From IMG/VR virus record IMGVR_UViG_2617270960_000003, positions 1 through 45,189 of that record: a DNA stretch of 45,189 bases; one strand, 5' to 3'. The notes under the pieces were generated by a model that was not told the origin of the DNA, ran no database searches, and saw nothing but the letters and a program-made list of their open reading frames with translations. Source of the DNA: a virus. Taxonomy: Duplodnaviria; Heunggongvirae; Uroviricota; Caudoviricetes. Position 1 is the first letter of the stretch; every line of letters starts with the position of its first letter. This document shows positions 38 to 43,816 of the stretch, piece by piece. Made by a program: the position numbers and the translations under genes.

Positions 38-3000
38 TATGCAAGCCTCACAATATAGTTAAATGCGATGTTTTTGACGGTGTTTTCCGCGTTACCAGCA
101 GCGTTAACGGTGATGGTGTGTCCATGTGAGCCAATCGCAACGGAGTGCGTATGAGCACCAATACCGACAGTATGTGCGTGTGCACCTGCGCTTGCAGCAG
201 TACCCGATACAGAGTGCGTATGAGCGCCTGCAGAAGAAGTGTTAACACTGTATTTAGAATAATCAGGTGATCCACTTCCCGGAGCACCACTGGAACCACC
301 TGAAACAAATGTCATCGAATGGGTATGTGCACCGGCTGAAGCAGCCGTACCGCTAACACTATGGGTATGTGCACCAGTGTTATTCGTGGATTTAGTGCCG
401 TAATCAAACGATGATGTGGTTTTCGTCCCCAAATCCGTACTGGATGCGCTGGCGCTGTGGGTGTGCGATTTAATGCCGTCCTGTTCCTGAGACAATACGG
501 CACGACCACTGGCGGGCTTGCCCTTAATCGTCCAGCCACGCATATCAGGAATAACGCCTGACGGATAAGCCACTGCAAGTTTCGGGTATGCAGATTTGTC
601 AAAAGTCTGCCCCTGCATCAGGGCATAGCCAGACGGAACGGTATCTGATGGCCACGGGATTGGTGCGCCGACTGGGTAGCTTTCTGGTGGAAGATTTTTC
701 GAGGTATAAACTTCTGCCCAGTCTTCCTCAAAACCATAACCGTCTCTTGAAGAACGGTAGAACAGACCACCATTTCTGTAATGCGCCTTCATCTGCAAGG
801 TCCGGCAACTTCCGACTCCGGTATAGAAGTTAACCAGAATATAGCTGTCGCCAGAGCGGGTGACATTGTAAGCGCCTGATTCGGCATTCCAGGGAACGCC
901 ACCATCCGCATCGGCATATGTATCCGTTGCCCTTCTGGCAAAAGCAGCCACATGCGCGGCGGTTAAAGTGATATCAGTAGAACCATCAAATGGAACACCG
1001 GATATTTTTCTTGCAGTCTGAAGTTTTGTAGCAGTTGCAGCATTACCAGTGGTGTTCTGATTACCCGTAGTGTTTACACCTGGAAGGTTAATATTTGCAG
1101 AACCGTCGAAAACAACTCCACCGATAGATCTTGCCGTCTGCAATTTCGTGGCTGTACTTGCATTACCATTCAATGAACCAGTTAATCCACCTGTAACAGA
1201 CAACGGACCTGAAACTGTTCCTCCGGTTGTTGGCAGTGCTCCAATATCTGATGGTGTAGGTTTCTGATGTGAGCTATACATCGTATAAACAACACCATAG
1301 GTAACGCTGGAAGGCTTACTCGCTGAATATGTTGGCGAGGTATAAACAGAAACTGACGCATTTGCAGTACAATCCCAATGGATATTTACACTCGTCGCAT
1401 AATTGCCAATCTCAACGTAAATATCATATGTATCGCCGGATGTGTTGATCCAGGCGAAATTCGTTAATCCGACGGCTGTACGCTTCCACAAAGCCCCGGT
1501 AATTCCTTTGGGGTTTCCATTGCCTGCTCGTAGAACCAGTTCTGAAATGCCTGCCTGATGTGGGGAACCGACGTTGTAACCAGCGCCACCAATCAATGCG
1601 ATGTAAACGATGGAACTCGCCTGTGGCATGGTTACCGTTGCTAATTTGAACCAACCAGCACCACCGCTGAATGACATTGTTGTTGAGTTAAGCGTACCAA
1701 TATCTTTCGGCGTCAGTGTTATATCCGCTGAAAGCGCCTTACCATTCACCTTACGGGCAGAAGGTACCCGACCATTCGCATTATCATTAGCTGCTTTCAC
1801 TGCTTTCGGTGTCGCGGCAAGCGTTTCAGATGCGCTGTTGGTTGCACTACTGAGCTGGACAATTCCTTTTTGTGCTGTCGTAGCGTCCTGTGCGGTGTAT
1901 TTCCCGTTAGCCAGGTCATACGCGGCCTTAACGGCTTTTGGCGTTGCCGCCTGTGACTCGGAAGTGCTGTTAGTCGCACTGCTGAGCTGAACTATCCCTT
2001 TCTGTCCTGTCGTTGCATCCTGTGCGGTGTATTTCCCGTTAGCCAGGTCATACGCGGCCTTAACGGCTTTTGGCGTTGCCGCCTGTGACTCGGAAGTGCT
2101 GTTAGTCGCACTGCTGAGCTGAACTATCCCTTTCTGTCCTGTCGTTGCATCCTGTGCGGTGTATTTCCCGTTAGCCAGGTCATACGCGGCCTTAACGGCT
2201 TTTGGCGTTGCCGCCTGTGACTCGGAAGTGCTGTTAGTCGCACTGCTGAGCTGAACTATCCCTTTCTGTCCTGTCGTTGCATCCTGTGCGGTGTATTTCC
2301 CGTTAGCCAGGTCATACGCGGCCTTAACGGCTTTTGGCGTTGCCGCCTGTGACTCGGAAGTGCTGTTGGTCGCACTGCTGAGCTGTACTACCCCCTTTTT
2401 CGTCGTGCTCGCATCCTCAAGCGCCACGGCGGATGCAATATCCTCTGCACGTTTTGCCGCTGTCTCAGCGCGCGTTGCTGCGGATTCTGCCGTACTTTTG
2501 CTCTGTGCTGCCGCTGCCGCACTGCCAGCAGCCTCTGTCGCCTTCGTGGATGCCGTCGTGGCGCTGCCCCTCGCTGCTGACGCCTGTCTGGTCGCCTCAT
2601 CTTTTGAAGCAGACGCAGATGATGCCGATGACGCCGCCGAACTGGCGGACGATGCGGCAGCCGTTTTTGAGGATTCTGCGCTGGTTTCCGACGCTTTCGC
2701 GTTCGTTTCGGATGTCTTCGCTGCGGAAGCTGACCTCGCTGCTGCGCTGGCCTGTACAGCGGCTTCGCCAGCATTCGTTGTGGCTGTTGAAGCAGACGAT
2801 GCAGCACTTTCTGCCGACTTTCCGGCAGCGGTGGCACTGGCTGAGGCCTGCCCGGCACTTGTTGACGCGGCACTGGCTGATGATGCAGCCGCTGTTTTTG
2901 AGCCTGCCGCAGCTGAGGCACTCTGTCCCGCTGCCGTTTCAGAAGACCTGGCGTTCGTCTCGGACGTCTTTGCCGCCTTCGCGGAATTTCCTGCCGCCGT

Positions 3001-20961: not shown

Positions 20962-22873
20962 TCACTCCTCCGGACAGCTTCGCTGCCAGTTCTTTAAGGG
21001 TTGGCCGGGTCGTCTCTTCTTCCCGGGATTTTGCCAGTACAGCCAGATCAAGCTGCCAGCGTTGCACGGACACACGTAATGCCGCGTAGGCATACACCAG
21101 GCAGTCCAGCGCTTCGTTACGCCGCTTTTTGTTATCCCACAGCAGACGCATCTTTCCTTTTTCCCACTTCTCCACAAGCTCTTCCGCGACCAGTTGCTGC
21201 GCCTCTGTCTGCGAAAAAATCTCCGGATCATCAGGAAAACGGATGGCATACGACGTGGCTTCATCCGCAGGCGTGGGCTCGGCTTTCATACGGGCATAGA
21301 GAATTTCTTTTGCGGTGTCCGTCCCCACTTCACACAGATAAACGCCCCGCTGATTGCGGGTTTTCGGCATGGTGATCACCGGCTTGCCATAGACAGACGC
21401 GCCTTTTACCGGCAGCACACGGAAAACACCGTGTTTTTTTGACCTCTGGTAGACGATTTCACCATCGATCCCCCCGGTGTCCCAGCAGACACGGGAAATG
21501 GTCATTTCGGTGCCATCCGCATGGCGGTATTTTTTGTTGATCGCCGCATCCACACGTAACAGCGTCTCTTCCTCATCGGGACGTCCCATAATGATGATTT
21601 TATCCACCAGAAAGGCTTCCTCTCCCGGAGCCCATCCCCAGACATACATCTCAAAACGGTTTCGCTGCGAGTCAATGCCCGCCGTCAGATAAACCACCCG
21701 GGCAGGCACCGCCGCCGTGTAATGAACAACCTTATCCATCAGTACCTGGTGATCGAGTTTTTCGCCCACGGCCTCTTCCCAGGTCTCGCCCAGCGTGGTG
21801 TTCACAAAGGTTTTCAGGCCGTTGGGATCTTTCAGTGCATCCAGCCAGTCATAGACAATCTGTACCCAGGTGGTGAACGGACTGTACGCCGTCCAGATAT
21901 GGAATGTGATGGAGCGCGGCGGCGGAATTTCATTATCCGCGGCGCTGAAAAACGTCAGACCGTCGCGGGTCCACATCCCCGTGTTTTCGCAGATCCACCG
22001 CCCGTTGCTCTGGTCAAGCTCAGACTGATGGATCACGCAGCCATGATGTTCACAGAGGTAGAAAACGCTTTCGGGGCTGTCCTTCTCCCATTTAAGGCCA
22101 AAAGGCGTGGACTCATCGCCAAATTTCAGATACTGCGCCTCCCCACAGTGCGGGCAGGGCACATAAAAACGCATGAAATGCGCCGACTCGTTGGCCGCTT
22201 TTTCGATCTGGCAGGAGCCTTTTATTTTAGGCGTCGAGCCGCGAATGGATTTTGGCCATACCGAGCCCTCAATACGCTTATCCCCCAGCAGGGTTGGCGA
22301 GCCCTCTTTTTCGACATCCGGCTCGAACGAGGAAAGTTCGTCATAGCAGACCACGTCCACGGATTTTTCACGGTAGTTTTTTGCTGCCGCACCACCCAGG
22401 CACCAGAAGCCCACCCCCGATGAAAAGCGTTTCAGCGTGAGAGTATTGTCACGATGTTTACGACCCAGCCACGGGGAAAGATCTTTCAGGCATGGCACGT
22501 CCCGAATCGTCGCCTCCACGTGAGACTTCATAAAATCTTCAGCGGCAGAATCCGTGGGCTGAAAAAGCAGACTGTTTCGGGATTTATGCTCAATAAAATA
22601 CCCGGCGACTCCCAGCAACATCTTTGTATAGCCAACACGGGCAGATTTAATCAGATTAACAGTGCGGATCTGATCATTCCCCATACTGTTCATGATGGCG
22701 ATCTGGAACGGCAGCGTTTTCCATTCGCCGTCACCGTATGAGGATTCTTTCGGCAGATAATAATACTGGTCAGCCCATTCAACTGCCGTCATCGGTACAA
22801 CCCTGACCAGAGGCTGCAGCGCAACCGAAACGGCGGCCACCATATTATTCAGTTGTTGCTCTGATATATTCAT
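20945..22873 (-). CDS. A: terminase large subunit A, 642 aa from internal ATG
   Basis: Homology to lambda gpA starts at MNISEQQ (ATG 22871-22873); strongly collinear (TAVEWAD.YYYLPKES...); the 19 upstream codons of the track ORF lie inside Nu1. Confidence 0.9.
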   Translation of the reverse strand: MNISEQQLNNMVAAVSVALQPLVRVVPMTAVEWADQYYYLPKESSYGDGEWKTLPFQIAIMNSMGNDQIRTVNLIKSARVGYTKMLLGVAGYFIEHKSRNSLLFQPTDSAAEDFMKSHVEATIRDVPCLKDLSPWLGRKHRDNTLTLKRFSSGVGFWCLGGAAAKNYREKSVDVVCYDELSSFEPDVEKEGSPTLLGDKRIEGSVWPKSIRGSTPKIKGSCQIEKAANESAHFMRFYVPCPHCGEAQYLKFGDESTPFGLKWEKDSPESVFYLCEHHGCVIHQSELDQSNGRWICENTGMWTRDGLTFFSAADNEIPPPRSITFHIWTAYSPFTTWVQIVYDWLDALKDPNGLKTFVNTTLGETWEEAVGEKLDHQVLMDKVVHYTAAVPARVVYLTAGIDSQRNRFEMYVWGWAPGEEAFLVDKIIIMGRPDEEETLLRVDAAINKKYRHADGTEMTISRVCWDTGGIDGEIVYQRSKKHGVFRVLPVKGASVYGKPVITMPKTRNQRGVYLCEVGTDTAKEILYARMKAEPTPADEATSYAIRFPDDPEIFSQTEAQQLVAEELVEKWEKGKMRLLWDNKKRRNEALDCLVYAYAALRVSVQRWQLDLAVLAKSREEETTRPTLKELAAKLSGGVNGYSR

Positions 22874-23351
22874 CCAGCAAATCCGGTAATTTATCCCCTG
22901 CCCGCGCACACTGATTTGCGCCCTTTGCAATAAGGGTTTTCAGATGGTCAATATGACGTGGCGTTAAATCCGGGAACTGTCGCTGCATGGATAACGGAAT
23001 GGAATCAAGCGTACTGGACAATGCCATCGCCAGTTTGCTGAGGGCGAAAACGCAGAAGTCTGAATCGATGAGCTTACCTTCGGTTACCTGATTTTTAAGT
23101 TTTTGAGCTACAGCCTGTTCTTCTGTCAGTTCAGCTCTGGCCCGAAGCAGCCTTTCCTCCAGTTCTCCCCCGTCATCAGGTGTTCTCTGATTGTGTTGTC
23201 GCCGCTCGCGATCTATCTCCAGTACAGTTTTAACGTCATATAAAACTTCCCTCCCCCGACGTTCAACAGGAGGAACGCCCCATTTATCAAATGCCTGAAC
23301 AGAGATACCGATGGAGGAGGCCATATCACTTTTATTCAATAAAAAGGCCAT
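22845..23351 (-). CDS. nu1: terminase small subunit Nu1, 168 aa from internal ATG
   Basis: GGAGAGGAG upstream of ATG at 23349-23351; ...GREVLYD...FCVFALSKLA...LDS.PLSMQRQFPDL..RHID.LK matches lambda Nu1; overlaps A start as in lambda. Confidence 0.8.
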   Translation of the reverse strand: MAFLLNKSDMASSIGISVQAFDKWGVPPVERRGREVLYDVKTVLEIDRERRQHNQRTPDDGGELEERLLRARAELTEEQAVAQKLKNQVTEGKLIDSDFCVFALSKLAMALSSTLDSIPLSMQRQFPDLTPRHIDHLKTLIAKGANQCARAGDKLPDLLDEYIRATTE

Positions 23352-23567
23352 CTCCTCTCCATAAGTCATCGATAAAAAGCGAAACAACAACCATGTGTTT
23401 TTGCAAAACCATTTGATATCATTGACATTTTTCGCATTGACGACATCAAAACACATCGTAAGGTTGTTGTATTTATTTTATTTTCACCTTACTTATCAAT
23501 TAGATATACCAAACAATTAAACAACAACCACCCCCTCAAAAAATCTCATAAATAGTGAAAACGCGCG

Positions 23568-23579
23568 AGGTCGCCGCCC
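23568..23579 (-). other. cos: cosN cohesive-end site (lambda-type 12-nt sequence)
   Basis: Plus strand aggtcgccgccc is the exact reverse complement of the lambda cohesive end GGGCGGCGACCT, about 217 bp upstream of Nu1. Confidence 0.8.
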
Positions 23580-23802
23580 CGTAACGATCTGGATCACCGG
23601 AAAGGACCCGCCAACGACTTTCGCGTGCAGGCATTAAAAATTTTGCAGTTCCATGCCTAGTTGAAACCTCGATTTCTATAACATCCAATTTTGTAAATTT
23701 AGATATAGCTCAACTTTTCCCAATGTTTTCAAGTGTATAAAAACAATTGGCGTTACGCCATAACACTATACTTAGGATAAGTAAAGATTTTAAGGAGTTT
23801 TA

Positions 23803-24870
23803 ATGAGTCAACATCAATATTATCCACAGCTGAAATGGAAGCCTGCTGAATATGAATCTCTGATGCTTTTAGATCAAACTACGCTCTCTGGTTTTACTCC
23901 GATCATTACCATTCCAGACATAGACTGGGATTATGAAAACGAATGCTACAAGAAGAGTTTGAGTTCTTACTTATCTGACTTCGGTATTAACCTTGCGGCA
24001 TCCTGGAAAGCCAATCGTCCTGTTTTGCTGGATGTTAAATATTTAGATAAACATGGTTCGAGCCGCCATCATCCTCTAGATATGTGTATCCAAGATGCTA
24101 GAGTAAATGGTAAGGAAATTATCCCTGTTGTTTCTCCCGCATATTCAACAAACTATATACATGCTGTTCAACGCAACTTAATCAATGGGCTCGCTATATC
24201 TATCACCCCCCAGACATGGCACCAATTCACAAGTCTGGTTAACCACTTAAATATTCATCCTAGTTTAATTGATGTAATCATTGATTTTGGAGATATTCAA
24301 AACGCAACTGATAGTTTAAAACAACAAGCATTAAGCATGGTCAACACATTATCAGGCCAAGCTCCGTGGAGAAACTTGATTTTATCTTCAACCGCATACC
24401 CGGCATCACAGGCAGGGATACCGCAACATCAAGTTCATCATATTCCGCGCCATGAATACGATCTTTGGATGTACGTAGTACAGAATTTTAGCAATGGAAG
24501 AACGCCAAGTTTTAGTGATTATCCCACCGCTAGCTCTACCATTACGAGCGTAGACCCACGCTTCATGTCTCAGTATGTCTCAGTGAGATATTCGAACGAT
24601 ACCTCATGGATCTTTGTAAAAGGTACCGCAGTTAAAGGAAATGGATGGGGCCAAACTAAAAACTTATGTACTACCCTTGTTAGTTCGCCAGAGTATCAAG
24701 TCTTTGGCTCCAAATTTAGTTGGGGGGATGATTACATTTACCAAAGATCATTAGGCGCTAACAAATCTGGCGGCTCTAAAGAATGGCGTAAAGTTGCACA
24801 TACGCACCATATTACGTTAGTCGTGAGACAGCTTTATTGGTTGGCGCAGACTCAGCCTGCCAAGCCTTAA
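23803..24870 (+). CDS. hypothetical protein, 355 aa; AT-rich cargo gene at the bor-equivalent locus
   Basis: ORF track; AAGGAG 7 nt upstream of ATG; low GC unlike the flanking phage genes; no confident homolog recalled. Confidence 0.6.
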   Translation: MSQHQYYPQLKWKPAEYESLMLLDQTTLSGFTPIITIPDIDWDYENECYKKSLSSYLSDFGINLAASWKANRPVLLDVKYLDKHGSSRHHPLDMCIQDARVNGKEIIPVVSPAYSTNYIHAVQRNLINGLAISITPQTWHQFTSLVNHLNIHPSLIDVIIDFGDIQNATDSLKQQALSMVNTLSGQAPWRNLILSSTAYPASQAGIPQHQVHHIPRHEYDLWMYVVQNFSNGRTPSFSDYPTASSTITSVDPRFMSQYVSVRYSNDTSWIFVKGTAVKGNGWGQTKNLCTTLVSSPEYQVFGSKFSWGDDYIYQRSLGANKSGGSKEWRKVAHTHHITLVVRQLYWLAQTQPAKP

Positions 24871-25432
24871 CTTTCCAGCCTACGCGTTTCTTTAAGGCTG
24901 TTCTGACTTCAGGCCTGAGATTCGCTATTGGAATATTTTCCGCAATAATATTCCATAACTCAAATCGGGGCTTGCTTTTGATTCCTTTGGAATAGCCCCA
25001 TCGTTCAAGTACGTCGATACATTCATCTTTCCAAAGCAATTGAGCGAGCATCAATGTGTCATGGTTTCGATTAAGCTTTTCTCCACGCATGTGCTTTATA
25101 AGAATGGCGCCTTTTGGCCCAACAGAAACCGTTTTAACGCCCCACCAACCTGGGATTAACTTTAATGCTCCCTCAAGGTGTTTCTCAGCTACGACAAGAG
25201 TAACCTTGTCCATTACAGAAGAATAATGCTTGATTTGAAGAGGCAAACGCTCCAAAGAGTCATATTCACTTTTGAGCTCGTACCCGTGTATAACACCATT
25301 TATTACAGCAATGTCTGCTCTACTGGCGCCAAGGGATATGGAAAATTCATCGACCACAAGGCAGTCTGGATCTAAATGCGATTCTTTCAAAAGCTTATGA
25401 TGCACCGCGAACCTAACATCTTGATCTTTCAT
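24812..25432 (-). CDS. hypothetical protein, 206 aa; possible PD-(D/E)xK-type nuclease fold; cargo partner
   Basis: ORF track; AAGGAGA 4 nt upstream of ATG; D...E.K pattern in VVDEFSISLGASRADIAVINGVIHGYELKSEYD; 3' end overlaps the convergent 355-aa gene by 59 bp. Confidence 0.55.
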   Translation of the reverse strand: MKDQDVRFAVHHKLLKESHLDPDCLVVDEFSISLGASRADIAVINGVIHGYELKSEYDSLERLPLQIKHYSSVMDKVTLVVAEKHLEGALKLIPGWWGVKTVSVGPKGAILIKHMRGEKLNRNHDTLMLAQLLWKDECIDVLERWGYSKGIKSKPRFELWNIIAENIPIANLRPEVRTALKKRVGWKVKAWQAESAPTNKAVSRLT

Positions 25433-25782
25433 GACTTCTCCTTACTCCCTCCGTTATTGAATTATAGCGCACTGCATTTTACTGCATTTGAGAGATTTGA
25501 CCACTTCAATCACAAAATGCTTATCTGCAGCAACAAGATTCATAGCCATACGACTATGGTGATTACCTTTTGTCTGGAAAACTGACCATTCCACGAAGAT
25601 CAGATAGGTCTATAGAATCTTGGTTTGTCATAGCGTTCGTCTTACTTTGAGATGAACCTTTGCTGCATAGGAGATCAGCCCGTCAAGGCTCACCAGCACT
25701 AACTGACTACTCAAAGGCTCATTCCAAAGGGTTTGGTTCGACGTGGTTGAGTGCGCTGCGGTGCGCGGTGAAATACCTGTAC

Positions 25783-25812
25783 AAAAATGCCCCGCATCTG
25801 CGAGGCATTTTC
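25783..25812 (-). terminator. rho-independent terminator downstream of Rz/Rz1
   Basis: Hairpin AAAATGCCTCGCAGATGCGGGGCATTTTT (minus sense) followed by a T-run. Confidence 0.5.
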
Positions 25813-25848
25813 CTGAAAGTCACGTATTAAATTTCAGTGAAATTAAAA

Positions 25849-26307
25849 TTATTTTAAGCACTGCGTCCTGATGTACTCCTGCAGGTAGTTGACCTGAGCG
25901 GTTATCTTGTCGATTCCACTTCGGAGACGGTAATAATTGAGTTCAGCATCTGCTGTAAGTCTTGGGCTTTCTCCATCGCCCATGCTGCTGGCTCCGGTCG
26001 TTGACTTTGCACAGGTGGCGGCGACTTGCAGGCGCTTACGCCCAGCAGAAACATCAGCACGAAGACTTTCGATAGTCGCGTTAGCATCAGCAAGCTCCTT
26101 TGTGTATCTGGCGTCGAGTTCTGCTACATCACGCTGACGCATCTGCATGTCAGTAATTGCCACGTTCGCCAGCTTCAGTTCTCTGGCATTTTTGTCGCGC
26201 TGGGCTTTGTAGGTAATGGCGTTATCGCGGTAATGATTAACAGCCCATGACAGGCAGACGATGGTGCAGATAACCAGAGTATAAATAATCGCTGCGACTC
26301 TGCTCAC
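25849..26307 (-). CDS. Rz: i-spanin Rz, 152 aa (GTG start overlapping R stop)
   Basis: [48 protein letters not shown]... is near-identical to lambda Rz as recalled; GTGA start/stop overlap with R. Confidence 0.85.
25902..26087 (-). CDS. Rz1: o-spanin Rz1 lipoprotein, embedded in the +1 frame of Rz, 61 aa
   Basis: AAGGAG upstream of ATG at 26085-26087; lipobox LLGVSAC then Pro-rich KSPPPVQ; fully nested in Rz as in lambda. Confidence 0.75.
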
Positions 26308-26837
26308 TGATCTATCCCCCAACAGGCTAATGCGCTTTCCTGGTCACGACGAATAACCTGTCCATAGCAGTTATTTGAACGTATGCGGCAATCGCGCCCA
26401 CCATCTTTTATCCACCAGCGAATCGCCTCGCATGCGCCCTTACGATCACCGGCATTCAGCCGCTTATAAAACGTCGACGGGAAACACTTACCGGGGCCAA
26501 TGTTATAGGGACAGAATGACGCTATACCCGCTTTCTGTGGTTCGGTCAGTGGTACTTTAATATTGCGCTCCACCCATGCCAGCGCCTTATCACGTTCAAT
26601 AGCGTTAACCTGGTCGCATTTTTCCTTCGACAGCTTCATTCCCGGTATGACGGGCTTACCATCCACCATTGTGGCACCACGACAGATGGTCCATATACCG
26701 GAACCATCGCGGTATGCCGTAGTGTGGTTACCCTCTTTTTCATCCAGAAACTGGTCAAGTATTTGAGGAGCAGACGCGCCTGCAGCAATCAGCGCCAGAA
26801 CAGCAGCTGACAGGCCGTATTTGATTTTTGCGCTCAT
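26304..26837 (-). CDS. R: SAR endolysin (phage-21 R-type lysozyme, GH24), 177 aa
   Basis: ORF track; N-terminal weakly hydrophobic Gly/Ala-rich signal-anchor-release segment ([16 protein letters not shown]) then lysozyme motifs (EG...AY.D..G.WTICRG). Confidence 0.85.
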
Positions 26838-30027: not shown

Positions 30028-30060
30028 GGAGTTTACTCACATCTGACAAAATCAATATAA

Positions 30061-30300
30061 ACAGCCCCTCCGGAGAGGGGCTGGAGAGTGGCGCTATGTG
30101 CCATTGCATGGTGCCGGGTGCCTCCCGGTGAATTCAGTACCAGCACCTGAATCCGCGATTATCCCATATACCTACTCGCTGATTGCCCCTCCGCACAGGG
30201 GGATTCACCATGCGAAATTTTTTAACAAACTTCCCGCTGGCCAGACAATAATCGCCAGCCTGAATTATGAGCAACGTAGCATTTTACGGGAAAACTGTTT
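30061..30300. repeat. copy 1 of a diverged ~240-bp direct repeat beginning with hairpin AGCCCCTCCGGAGAGGGGCT
   Basis: Shared blocks with copy 2: agcccctccggagaggggctg, gcatggtgcc.ggtgcctcccggt.aattcag, gggggattcaccatgcga, ttttaacaaa, cagacaat. Confidence 0.6.
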
Positions 30301-30520
30301 TCTGCAGTAAAAAGGCCCGCCGGAGCGAGCCTGGAAGGATAGCGGTCATGTGATGCCGGTTTCCCGGTAACTCAGCATCGGTATCTGAGTCAACGTTTTC
30401 TCTACTGGGTCATTTCCGATACGTTCCGCCTTCCGGCAGACTTTCATCACGTCAGAAAATATAGCACCCTGAGTAACAGGACAGTACTCAGAATTCAGGA
30501 AACTGTGACACATCCTGCAC

Positions 30521-30760
30521 AGAAAAGCCCCTCCGGAGAGGGGCTGAAGTATAGCCTAATTTCTGTCTGTCGCATGGTGCCAGGTGCCTCCCGGTAAATT
30601 CAGCCTGTCTACTGAATTTGCATGTTCTCTGGATCATACACTTTGCCAGATGCCCCGCCGCTGAGGGGGATTCACCATGCGATGTAATTTTTAACAAATT
30701 CTCCGGCAGCCAGACAATCATCAAGCTGTGGAATTGTGAGGTATTTAAAAATTTCAACGG
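30521..30760. repeat. copy 2 of the diverged ~240-bp direct repeat
   Basis: Same shared blocks as copy 1; on the minus strand each hairpin is followed by a T-rich run (terminator-like). Confidence 0.6.
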
Positions 30761-30975: not shown

Positions 30976-31052
30976 TGGACCGCCATCGAGAACTCGAACC
31001 CCGCGCAACCAGCTTCGAAGGCTGGCGCTCTATCCCGATGAGCTAATGGCGG
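30976..31052 (-). tRNA. tRNA-Arg (anticodon UCG)
   Basis: Hand-folded cloverleaf: acceptor CCGCCAT/ATGGCGG, D-stem GCTC/GAGC, anticodon stem CCAGC/GCTGG with loop CTTCGAA, T-loop TTCGAGT (T-stem has two G-U pairs), 3' CCA. Confidence 0.6.
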
Positions 31053-31059
31053 TATGTGA

Positions 31060-31135
31060 TGGTGGCCCTTGCTGGATTTGAACCAGCGACCTGGCGATTA
31101 TGAGTCGCTCGCTCTCACCACTGAGCTAAAGGGCC
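31060..31135 (-). tRNA. ileZ: tRNA with CAU anticodon, ileX/ileZ-like (tRNA-Ile2 or Met)
   Basis: Minus-sense GGCCCTTTAGCTCAGTGGTGAGAGCGAGCGACTCATAATCGCCAGGTCGCTGGTTCAAATCCAGCAAGGGCCACCA; canonical cloverleaf; near-identical to E. coli ileX as recalled. Confidence 0.8.
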
Positions 31136-35507: not shown

Positions 35508-35663
35508 TTACTCCTCAGGTTCGTAAACTGTGAAGACAGCGACCTCCGTCTGGCCGGTTCGGATTCGTACCTCGCAGAGGTCTTTCCTCGTTACCAGTAC
35601 AGTCACAATGACGGTTAAACAGATGACGATCAGGGCGATTAACATCGCCTTTTGCTGCTTCAT
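35508..35663 (-). CDS. hok: Hok/Gef family type I toxin, 51 aa
   Basis: MKQQKAMLIALIVICLTVIVTVLVTRKDLCEVRIRTGQTEVAVFTVYEPEE is near-identical to HokD/RelF as recalled. Confidence 0.85.
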   Translation of the reverse strand: MKQQKAMLIALIVICLTVIVTVLVTRKDLCEVRIRTGQTEVAVFTVYEPEE

Positions 35664-35899
35664 AGCCTGCTTCTCCTTGCCTTTCGGCACGTAAGAGGCT
35701 AACCTAGATTTGCCGTTCATAGATTGAGCCTCAGATTAATGTTAAGCGTCTTGCAGGACGCATAATGTTAACTGTGGCTTTTCTCTATCTGCCTTTGGTG
35801 TTCATGCTTGAGGCAGATAGCCTCAAGCACCCGCAGCAATTTTACTTAACTCCCCTTTTCCCACAAATCGTTTTTATCCCTATTGGTAATGTTCTCCCG

Positions 35900-43248: not shown

Positions 43249-43816
43249 TAGCTAACCAACGAAGCTAAGGTTGGTAATTAAGGAGTTCTCCACGGGTGAG
43301 GTGGAGTGCGTGCGCCGGACACGGGTGAGCATCCGGCACTGACAGTTTACTGAAAGGATATTTCCCTGAAAAGTCAGACCATAACGCGAAAGCGCACGGC
43401 GAGGTAGCTGGTTCATAGATAGCCTGTCGTTAAATTTTCGTCGACCGTGCGCTTCCGGTTGTGGCAATCCGCGAAATGGCGCGGCGGTAAGTATGGCGGG
43501 GTTATTCCTTCCACCGTTGAGGACACTGGGTTGTCAGGTTGACCATACGCTTAAGTGACAACCCCGCTGCAACGCCCTCTGTTATCAATTTTCTGGTGAC
43601 GTTTGGCGGTATCAGTTTTACTCCGTGACTGCTCTGCCGCCCTTTTTAAAGTGAATTTTGTGATGTGGTGAATGCGGCTGAGCGCACGCGGAACAGTTAA
43701 AACCAAAAACAGTGTTATGGGTGGATTCTCTGTATCCGGCGTTAATTGTTAACTGGTTAACGTCACCTGGAGGCACCAGGCACTGCATCACAAAATTCAT
43801 TGTTGAGGACGCGATA

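Follow-up and report, generated by a model that had tools for sequence, protein, structure and literature searches.

A convergent beta/sce7726 gene pair between Rz and cos: a possible toxin-less core of two phage defence systems

What do two genes that face each other between the lysis cassette and the cos site contribute to the lambdoid element that carries them? We asked this of a Caudoviricetes record (IMG/VR IMGVR_UViG_2617270960_000003), of which we analysed positions 1 to 45,189, a stretch of 45,189 nt hereafter called the window. A preliminary description made from the letters alone had proposed that a 355-aa protein (plus strand) and a 206-aa protein (minus strand) form a convergent AT-rich cargo module at the position of bor in lambda.

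A cargo module in the bor slot

The ORFs of the window agree with this proposal, including the 59 bp common to the two 3' ends, which lie tail-to-tail. The same holds for the strong ribosome-binding sites attributed to the two genes: both start with ATG, and AAGGAG stands 5 nt before each of them (CTCCTT on the plus strand for the 206-aa gene; Table 1). The GC content of the module (23600-25630) is 40.8%, against 52.0% in the rest of the window, and the flanks towards the terminase and the lysis genes have 53.7% and 51.3%, respectively. With cosN and Rz placed on its two sides, the position of the AT-rich cargo was confirmed. In lambda, bor lies in this place, between Rz and cos. The module has in common with bor its slot, a GC content lower than that of the flanks, and one gene transcribed against the late operon (bor in lambda, beta in the window), while the nuclease-like gene is on the same strand as Rz. 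However, Bor is a small lipoprotein, whereas the window encodes an unrelated, cytoplasmic and enzyme-like pair. Searches of Pfam and NCBIfam matched the two proteins to the beta and sce7726 families and to no other, leaving no likeness to Bor in these libraries. The module is carried by 126 of 5,426 E. coli genomes (about 2% of complete genomes), on lambdoid prophages, which points to accessory cargo.

Table 1. Coordinates of the beta/sce7726 module and of the features that flank it in the window.
Feature	Position	Strand	Basis or remark
Terminase small subunit (Nu1-like), beyond cos	22845-23456	-	So annotated in near-identical prophages
cosN and adjoining bases, GTTACG/GGGCGGCGACCTCGCG	23564-23585	-	Cos-side limit; exact 22-nt match to lambda cos junction, 0 expected by chance
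AT-rich leader, presumed beta promoter region; Shine-Dalgarno 23792-23797	23600-23802	+	GC 0.36-0.37
Small hairpin GGCGT-t-ACGCC, then minus-strand T-run	23748-23760	-	Terminator scan; weak fold, -7.8 kcal/mol, z = -1.3
355-aa member of the beta family with a predicted TIM barrel	23803-24870	+	ORF listing and HMM
Antisense overlap of 59 bp; beta residues 337-355 opposite nuclease-like residues 188-206	24812-24870	both	ORF coordinates
sce7726 / Phage_P4_cII protein, 206 aa; predicted N-terminal PD-(D/E)xK domain and C-terminal helical domain	24812-25432	-	ORF listing
Codons of putative catalytic residues E29, D40, E52, K54	25271-25348	-	Invariant alignment columns
Leader/promoter region of nuclease-like gene; Shine-Dalgarno at plus-strand 25438-25443	25433-25627	-	
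Promoter-like TGGTCA-16-TAAAAT	25503..25476	-	Scan; site number no higher than in shuffled sequence
P22-like segment downstream of Rz, lysis-side cargo limit	25628-25848	-	87% identity to P22/BTP1 rha-Rz junction
Strong hairpin terminator within P22-like segment	25784-25811	-	-22.6 kcal/mol, z = -5.4
Rz spanin, Rz1 embedded at 25902-26093; end of lysis cassette	25849-26322	-	Near-identical E. coli prophages have it as 'lysis protein'
Lysozyme gene	26304-26837	-	ORF listing

In the beta leader, no plus-strand match to the sigma-70 consensus passed the promoter scan, so the promoter of beta is presumed only. The sigma-70 scan of the module returned fewer sites than shuffled sequence, and for this reason we claim no promoter. 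The small hairpin in the beta leader is terminator-like and could act on transcripts that read antisense through beta. We rejected an RNA element or a terminator within the overlap: a search of Rfam found no RNA element in the module, and neither strand of the region 24790-24910 folds better than its shuffled versions (z = -0.35 and -0.04) or has an intrinsic terminator.

Two conserved families on shared DNA

The smaller protein belongs to the 'sce7726 family' of NCBIfam (NF033832; 184.1 bits for a cutoff of 70, E = 2e-54), its residues 1-183 spanning profile positions 1-182 of 184. Homologues carry PF26915 (Phage_P4_cII); the protein itself had no match in the copy of Pfam that was searched, and the PADLOC 'cll' model matches it at 3.8e-31. 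A D...E.K signature and a PD-(D/E)xK fold had been suspected in this protein, and both were borne out. The acidic residues E29, D40 and E52 and the lysine K54 (E52-L-K54 in the window) do not vary among 55 homologues and P4 cII (56 sequences). The predicted model has the alpha-beta-beta-beta-alpha-beta core of the PD-(D/E)xK superfamily, with the putative catalytic residues on strands 25-32, 37-44 and 48-54. This core fold and the E...D...ExK metal-binding/catalytic constellation are common to the PD-(D/E)xK nucleases SPO1766 (MmcB-like, 3dnx), Can2 (nuclease domain) and NucS. Judging from alignment and model, the 206-aa protein is PD-(D/E)xK nuclease-like, with E29...D40...E52-x-K54 as catalytic-type residues. 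The last residues (188-206) are not conserved, and nearly all have a pLDDT below 50.

The larger protein is a full-length member of the Pfam family Beta_protein (PF14350; 190.4 bits for a cutoff of 27, E = 8e-56), with residues 6-342 covering profile positions 1-342 of 342. Structure prediction gives a TIM barrel, and the invariant polar residues of the protein are E16, K51, D77, R216, D239, R262, H335 and H336. Comparison with the sequences of solved proteins gave no match. The barrel had no specific structural relative, so that a role of beta as a sensor or an enzyme is a guess. Within NF033832/PF26915 and PF14350, nothing distinguishes the pair from other members: both proteins are full-length and score highly. 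These families are annotation labels only, and PGAP gives identical E. coli proteins the names sce7726 family and beta family. In the literature searched we found no mention of PF14350, and the six papers that name sce7726, judged by title and abstract, appear to be genome or omics reports.

The preliminary description had also loosely likened the pair to the paired families sce7725 and sce7726. The second stood (184 bits, NF033832), whereas no sce7725 model in NCBIfam release 20 matched the beta of the window, that of P4 or one from Sorangium. In a Sorangium locus the partner of sce7726 is a beta-family protein, and the sce7725 half of the comparison is confirmed only through the pairing, not through an HMM of that name.

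We analysed the linkage of the two genes across genomes. Of 78 genome loci that could be evaluated, which span more than ten phyla, 77 have the same convergent pair, as have 40 of 40 viral loci seeded with beta (roughly 12 distinct ones); the evidence for sce7726 as the constant partner of beta comes from these 40 viral loci and two look-ups. Convergence of the two genes held in all loci examined, none of which had them in a co-directional operon. Most homologous loci are on bacterial chromosomes, in many phyla, without recognisable phage genes at that position, and in 32 of 77 dereplicated loci beta is not directly preceded by an ORF on its own strand, an indication that the core stands alone. 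The shared DNA is itself conserved: the spacing between the conserved C-terminal motifs is 25 nt in 69 of 83 dereplicated loci, i.e. in one exact register, and in these register-locked loci the motifs of both proteins are truly dual-coded. In the clade of the window, a 39-nt insertion relaxes the register, and the overlap pairs the end of beta with the non-conserved tail of the nuclease-like protein. In the sister genera it is just 11 bp. Tail-to-tail overlap is a family-wide, register-locked and ancient feature.

Both genes are under strong purifying selection (dN/dS of 0.02-0.08 against orthologues in other genera), and both ORFs are full length in all 29 E. coli prophage copies where both genes are readable.

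Relation to Gop-beta-cII and PD-lambda-2

Two defence systems validated in E. coli, Gop-beta-cII and PD-lambda-2, each contain a protein of the beta family. Scanning the module with defence-system HMMs matched the PADLOC models 'beta', 'cll' and PD-Lambda-2_C. PADLOC was the one such library scanned, and it holds no model for the pair alone. Gop-beta-cII, known from the three-gene loci of P4 and ECOR59, protects against lambda and P1 (PMC9122126), and its killing is triggered by the phage gene orf184 (bioRxiv 10.1101/2023.04.06.535777). The P4 proteins are homologous to those of the window, at 22% identity for beta (BLASTP 3e-07; both 355 aa) and 27% for cII (BLASTP 3e-19), P4 cII being the longer (264 versus 206 aa). 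The layout is also alike: in P4, beta (651-1718, plus strand) and cII (1746-2540, minus strand) converge beside cos. In P4, 27 nt with an annotated terminator separate beta and cII, so that the overlap has been lost there.

Gop is present in P4 and absent from the window, where the 225 bp from cosN to the start of beta are too short to hold it. No ORF of the module or its flanks matched the PADLOC gop model, and among 124 loci and the window phmmer found P4 Gop only in P4. A hidden gop or other third gene was rejected, as the small ORFs at 23536-23688, 25376-25585, 25454-25594 and 25660-25830 have no PADLOC match. For P4, it is Gop and not cII that has been demonstrated to be the toxin.

PD-lambda-2 is defined as a system of three genes, a HigB-like A, an Xre-peptidase B and a beta-like C, with no sce7726 (PMC9519451). 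The beta of the window matches component C: the PADLOC PD-Lambda-2_C models find it at 4.4e-32 and 2.2e-25, and the P4 'beta' model at 3.5e-10, a far lower score. The window lacks components A and B. Elsewhere, 14 loci of diverse bacteria have an Xre-peptidase (B-type) gene directly upstream of beta and the same convergent sce7726 gene downstream, and 12 of the 14 also have a HigB-like (A-type) gene. The PADLOC models of A and B confirmed both loci that were tested (L036 and L055; 1e-41, 1e-150). The comparative results suggest that current models of PD-lambda-2 omit a conserved fourth gene. Past the beta-like gene, the published PD-lambda-2 clone has no more than 396 bp, so that any sce7726 gene in it would be truncated. 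Since this clone defends nonetheless, defence does not always require the nuclease-like protein. This point, like the toxin of P4 being Gop, speaks against the reading proposed below.

The preliminary description had mentioned neither the place of beta and cII in the Gop-beta-cII system of P4, nor the match to PD-lambda-2C, nor the family-wide, register-locked overlap.

Defence and its alternatives

Comparison with these systems leads us to a reading that we hold with moderate confidence as a whole: the module would be cargo of an E. coli lambdoid prophage, a 'moron' cassette of roughly 2 kb, and its two genes the toxin-less core common to Gop-beta-cII and PD-lambda-2, acting as stand-alone prophage defence. 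In a lysogen, the pair may work alone against other phages, by defence or abortive infection. Its effector would be the sce7726 protein, a Mg-dependent DNase whose C-terminal helical domain probably binds DNA. Beta would serve as the sensor or as a regulator, and might be an enzyme; it would license this effector or hold it back, without being a classical antitoxin. The genes are convergent with no terminator between them, and their transcripts are therefore expected to overlap. Such transcripts would couple the expression of beta to that of the nuclease gene, and the DNA common to both would make the two genes hard to separate. Late transcription antiterminated by Q reads the nuclease gene in its sense direction and beta in antisense, so induction would be expected to raise the proportion of nuclease to beta.

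The orientation of the nuclease gene also fits a part in the life cycle of the phage itself, either in the control of lysogeny or as a late nuclease acting on host or phage DNA near packaging. The gene is oriented like the lysis genes and lies just 3' of Rz, as it does in prophages of Photorhabdus and Xenorhabdus, and the module adjoins cos in both the window and P4. Ghisotti and colleagues are said to have described in 1990 a lysogeny phenotype for P4 cII, which reportedly owes its name to clear plaques. Yet most of the homologous loci are chromosomal and lack phage genes, as described above, and locations vary: the pair is in the nin region in Rac-SA53, and has GmrSD as a neighbour in Elizabethkingia. 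In addition, a strong terminator stands between the pair and Rz, and few E. coli genomes have the module. We consider a life-cycle function unlikely.

Related loci have been called toxin-antitoxin-like by Rousset et al. (PMC9122126) and Vassallo et al. (PMC9519451). The pair could accordingly be an addiction module, with a nuclease-like toxin and beta as its antitoxin, that mainly stabilises the prophage or mobile element. That the two genes are almost never apart agrees with this, and the pair of Rac-SA53 adjoins hok/mok. However, they are convergent instead of forming an operon, known antitoxins do not resemble beta, a TIM barrel of 355 aa whose invariant residues are enzyme-like, and PD-lambda-2C is not needed to neutralise the toxin of PD-lambda-2 (PMC9519451). 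A natural mutant also speaks against addiction. In E. coli 2013C-3181, a viable strain, beta is interrupted at codon 95 by an IS3 element, and the 206-aa gene is intact. This single natural mutant indicates that beta is not an essential antitoxin. Its nuclease gene has a weaker Shine-Dalgarno sequence (AAGGTG) and the changes P106S and P174L, which might have compensated for the loss of beta. We rejected this explanation, because all three occur next to an intact beta at another locus (L086), whose nuclease allele is near-identical (one further substitution, same weakened Shine-Dalgarno). On balance, addiction appears rather improbable.

Another possibility is a mechanism akin to restriction-modification, where beta would modify DNA by a base exchange of the DpdA/TGT type and the PD-(D/E)xK protein would cut unmodified DNA. 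The DpdA/TGT-type matches of the barrel are outranked by many unrelated TIM barrels and reach at most 9% identity, and beta has no sequence match to any solved protein. Moreover, the intact nuclease of 2013C-3181 is tolerated next to a disrupted beta, whereas restriction enzymes are seldom tolerated in the absence of the modifying partner, and the known relatives behave as abortive-infection systems. This makes such a mechanism very unlikely. Finally, a decaying, functionless remnant whose overlap arose by accidental drift of a stop codon is barely credible and largely refuted by the selection data, for although all that the overlap covers in the clade of the window is a disordered tail without conservation, and in sister genera 11 bp, the low dN/dS, the intact E. 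coli copies, the full set of invariant residues and the strong ribosome-binding sites of both genes all contradict it.

Our preferred reading, a defence core carried as prophage cargo, has a bolder version that we regard as possible but doubtful. The pair would then be an autonomous two-gene immune system and the ancestral core, to which Gop, or the HigB-like and Xre-peptidase proteins, were added later as effectors, and the overlap would be functional. If this is true, convergent transcription without a terminator sets the ratio of sensor to nuclease, late transcription of the prophage flips it, the DNA common to both genes makes them inseparable, and PD-lambda-2 has four genes, the last of them overlooked so far. 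The locus of the window provides the simplest natural context for the roles of beta and the nuclease, because beta is there with only its near-universal partner and neither toxin. As it is present in about 2% of complete E. coli genomes, the pair could affect the phage susceptibility of clinical and STEC-type strains. Defence-type neighbours of the pair elsewhere agree with such a role in a qualitative, anecdotal way: they include GmrSD and, as family totals of a PADLOC scan of 121 neighbouring ORFs, type I restriction-modification components, methyltransferases and components of MADS. Beyond defence, the antisense dual coding of conserved residues in this family is an unusually old and widespread case.

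A convergent gene pair beside cos

In this E. coli lambdoid prophage the locus next to cos is a moron, and is the toxin-less two-gene core of the P4 defence locus Gop-beta-cII and of the three-gene defence system PD-lambda-2. Both proteins belong to already-named families, so the locus itself is no surprise. What the analysis adds is the recognition of this core, the family-wide register-locked antisense overlap between its genes and a likely missing fourth gene of PD-lambda-2.

The preliminary description had proposed two AT-rich ORFs with strong ribosome-binding sites, whose 3' ends overlap by 59 bp, and the ORF list agrees (see table). AAGGAG with a 5-nt spacer precedes both start codons, and GC content is 40.8% in the module (23600-25630) vs 52.0% in the remaining window. 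The proposed bor-equivalent position between cos and Rz was upheld by an exact match to the lambda-type cos junction, and by the flanking gene order, with the minus-strand genes for Nu1 and terminase to one side and those for Rz/Rz1, lysozyme and holin to the other. The module occupies the slot held by bor in lambda. The earlier observation is thus confirmed and its interpretation supported. A stretch covering at least 80% of the 2.39-kb region occurs in 126 of 5,426 complete E. coli genomes, and its annotation there is invariably 'beta family protein / sce7726 family protein / lysis protein'. No nucleotide-level match was found among sequenced phage isolates.

Coordinates of the features discussed (L-numbers are fetched homologous loci)
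Feature	Location	Strand
beta ORF, 355 aa	window 23803-24870	+
sce7726 ORF, 206 aa	window 24812-25432	-
Lambda-type cos junction	window 23564-23585	-
Segment with the extra 39 nt of the window clade	window 24834-24875	
Region 3' of Rz, matching the rha-Rz junction of P22 and BTP1-like Salmonella phages at ~87% identity	window 25628-25850	
Hairpin terminator 3' of Rz	window 25784-25811	
STnc100 copies (RF02076; 133 and 140 bits)	window 30053-30241, 30517-30710	-
Two prophage tRNA genes	window 30976-31135	-
sok antisense RNA of a hok/sok-type locus (103 bits)	window 35658-35832	-
DicF sRNA (77 bits)	window 43591-43642	+
PD-lambda-2-type loci with sce7726	L036:6001-9122, L055:5968-9129	
Further 12 such loci	L044, L053, L057, L060, L062, L063, L065, L070-L073, L079	
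Pair in Rac-SA53 (KU052037.1)	L083:5001-7349	
sce7726 homologue in DumpsterDude (MT024859.1)	L084:3956-4633	+
Xenorhabdus koppenhoeferi locus	L009:6001-7810	
E. coli 2013C-3181 (NZ_CP027312.1) locus	L125:1845-4823	
Elizabethkingia anophelis locus	L127:4001-7991	

The 206-aa protein is a full-length member of the sce7726 family (NF033832, 2e-54), which comprises ~3,600 clusters (50% identity, E <= 1e-10) among 1.84 billion representative proteins. It also matches the PADLOC model 'cll' (3.8e-31) and phrog_984, and its homologues carry PF26915 (Phage_P4_cII). The D...E.K signature noticed earlier held up: all 56 sequences compared, P4 cII among them, have E29, D40, E52 and K54, and at the sequence level a nuclease-type active site is conserved. 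In the model, residues 126-187 form a C-terminal four-helix domain, and disorder is predicted for almost all of the final 19 residues. Beta is a full-length Beta_protein member (PF14350, 8e-56) that matches the PADLOC models PD-Lambda-2_C (4e-32) and P4 'beta' (3.5e-10), as well as phrog_9159. A confident AlphaFold model (pLDDT 94.4, 48-sequence alignment) predicts this conserved partner to be a TIM barrel. Sequence searches detected no related solved structure, and the only viral structural match was a Gordonia phage homologue. Its invariant residues (Y6, P8, E16, P33, K51, D77 and P108 in the first half; P200, R216, D239, P252, R262, Y263, W269, Q284, G323, W328, H335 and H336 in the second) may form an active or ligand-binding site. 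Both genes have dN/dS of 0.02-0.08 against Edwardsiella, Klebsiella, Pantoea and Pectobacterium orthologues, with saturated dS, and by this measure are under strong purifying selection.

Relation to Gop-beta-cII and PD-lambda-2

In satellite phage P4, gop (247-648, +) and beta (651-1718, +, 355 aa) face cII (1746-2540, -), which is annotated 'sce7726 family protein', and the locus directly adjoins the cos end. It confers protection from lambda and P1, and in the absence of beta Gop is toxic (PMC9122126); the phage gene orf184 triggers killing of the cell by the system (bioRxiv 10.1101/2023.04.06.535777). PD-lambda-2 consists of a HigB-like A, a toxic Xre-peptidase B and a beta-like C that is needed for defence, not for toxin neutralisation (PMC9519451). 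The window has the beta component of both systems and shares cII with P4, at 22% (beta) and 27% (cII) identity to the P4 proteins, but it lacks gop as well as the A and B genes and hence belongs to neither named system. P4 also differs in having no overlap and a terminator between beta and cII. In a phmmer search of 124 loci and the window with P4 Gop, P4 was the sole hit.

An Xre-peptidase gene of the PD-Lambda-2_B type lies directly upstream of beta in 14 loci, accompanied in 12 by a HigB-like (A-type) gene; PADLOC A/B models confirmed the type in the two loci tested, L036 and L055 (1e-41 and 1e-150). All 14 have a fourth gene, a convergent and overlapping sce7726. The published three-gene definition omits this gene, and the published clone, which leaves at most 396 bp past the beta-like gene, would truncate it. 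sce7726 is likely the missing fourth gene of PD-lambda-2.

A pattern scan seeded with sce7726, with one genome per species, gave 381 confirmed loci, of which the best 80 were fetched. These span Enterobacterales, Vibrionales, other Gamma-, Alpha- and Betaproteobacteria, Myxococcota, Desulfobacterota, Firmicutes, Bacteroidota, Acidobacteriota, Elusimicrobiota, Armatimonadota, Chloroflexota, Gemmatimonadota, Melainabacteria-like lineages and several CPR phyla. A beta-family gene is convergent to sce7726 in 77 of these best 80. Two of the exceptions stop at a contig edge and the third is a Xenorhabdus prophage, the only evaluable locus with sce7726 but no beta partner. There, sce7726 sits downstream of an Rz-like gene and is followed by co-directional ORFs, the first of which is kinase-like (Ser/Thr-kinase-like HRDLKPANIL motif). 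Convergent sce7726 was also found in 40/40 beta-seeded IMG/VR loci (~12 distinct; beta identity to the window down to 23%), and two further look-ups gave the same arrangement. A same-strand ORF just upstream of beta is missing in 32 of 77 dereplicated loci, including the window and nearly all its enterobacterial relatives. Since linkage is near-universal and the upstream genes differ, the pair is the core that stays the same, and the toxins added to it vary.

Among sequenced phages, homologues of sce7726 occur in those infecting E. coli (Rac-SA53), Gordonia, Mycolicibacterium, Myxococcus and Bacillus. Inspection of two, Rac-SA53 and Gordonia phage DumpsterDude, showed that each carries both genes. 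The Rac-SA53 pair (54% identical, 25-nt register as defined below, 41-bp overlap) lies in the nin region, adjoining hok/mok, and not at cos, which indicates that the module moves between hotspots in lambdoid phages. The DumpsterDude homologue (2e-68) is unannotated in its record, where a small gene 32 is annotated instead, inside it on the opposite strand. The gene under the corresponding match in Gordonia phage Powerball is labelled 'exonuclease'.

Register of the antisense overlap

The two genes overlap by 11-158 bp in 75 of 77 genome loci, lengths that are exact because stop codons fix the 3' ends. Taking the codons of beta H336 and sce7726 W186 as anchors in 83 dereplicated loci, we found a spacing of exactly 25 nt in 69 and congruent to 1 modulo 3 in 81. 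In the 25-nt class, the W186 TGG lies opposite the last two bases of beta codon 345 and the first of codon 346, as their reverse complement, and this limits beta there to A or S, then mostly N, S or T. The same nucleotides of this class encode beta Q343-L344-[A/S]-[N/S/T]-L347 and sce7726 L180-K181-x-R183-x-x-W186-R187. The beta ORF crosses the W186 codon in 71/71 unique pairs and reaches that of K181 in 54.

In the clade of the window (E. coli, Edwardsiella, Klebsiella, Pantoea, Pectobacterium) the spacing is 64 nt (25 + 39) and the conserved motifs no longer overlap. Sister genera overlap by just 11 bp; the E. coli copy gained a 20-residue tail, mostly disordered by prediction, that brings the overlap back to 59 bp. 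The overlap noted earlier is thus real, and in the window it derives, in relaxed form, from a dual-coding arrangement that is ancient and frozen. The extra 39 nt, seen against L011, L083 and others, have flanks (CAGCTT ... TAACTT TCCAGC) that hint at a small duplication uncoupling the dual-coded segment, although they are too short to prove it. Folding analysis of the window overlap revealed neither an intrinsic terminator nor any significant RNA structure, and the convergent transcripts would therefore be expected to overlap.

Possible function and prophage setting

Defence activity is known for two related beta-containing systems, and linkage of beta and sce7726 is near-obligate across loci. 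On the most likely reading, the pair is a prophage-borne anti-phage or abortive-infection module in which the sce7726 protein would act as a DNase effector, licensed by beta as a sensor or regulator. Such a role would fit PD-lambda-2C, which defence requires but toxin neutralisation does not. Against this reading, the known toxin in P4 is Gop, and the short stretch retained in the PD-lambda-2 clone suggests that the nuclease-like gene is probably dispensable there, if ECOR42 carries one. In E. coli 2013C-3181, an IS3-family element splits beta at codon 95 and leaves sce7726 intact; this natural knockout, a single case, argues that beta is not an indispensable antitoxin. In another strain, intact beta accompanies an almost identical nuclease allele whose Shine-Dalgarno is weakened in the same way.

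The terminator 3' of Rz is strong (-22.6 kcal/mol, z = -5.4), so a lysogen would transcribe the module from its own promoters; a promoter scan identified none for the module. Under Q antitermination, late transcripts would run through the nuclease gene in the sense direction and through beta in antisense.

In Elizabethkingia anophelis, a chromosomal pair and a type IV restriction gene (GmrSD) are ~420 bp apart, in a defence island-like setting. Besides this GmrSD, neighbours in other genomes include type I R-M and MADS components, a qualitative observation. In the window, the presence of sok and DicF marks the prophage early region as Qin/Rac-like. The two STnc100 sRNA copies, ~460 bp apart, sit upstream of the prophage tRNA genes, which ARAGORN assigns to Arg(TCG) and Met(CAT); at the corresponding position in related prophages, PGAP annotates tRNA-Arg and tRNA-Ile genes.
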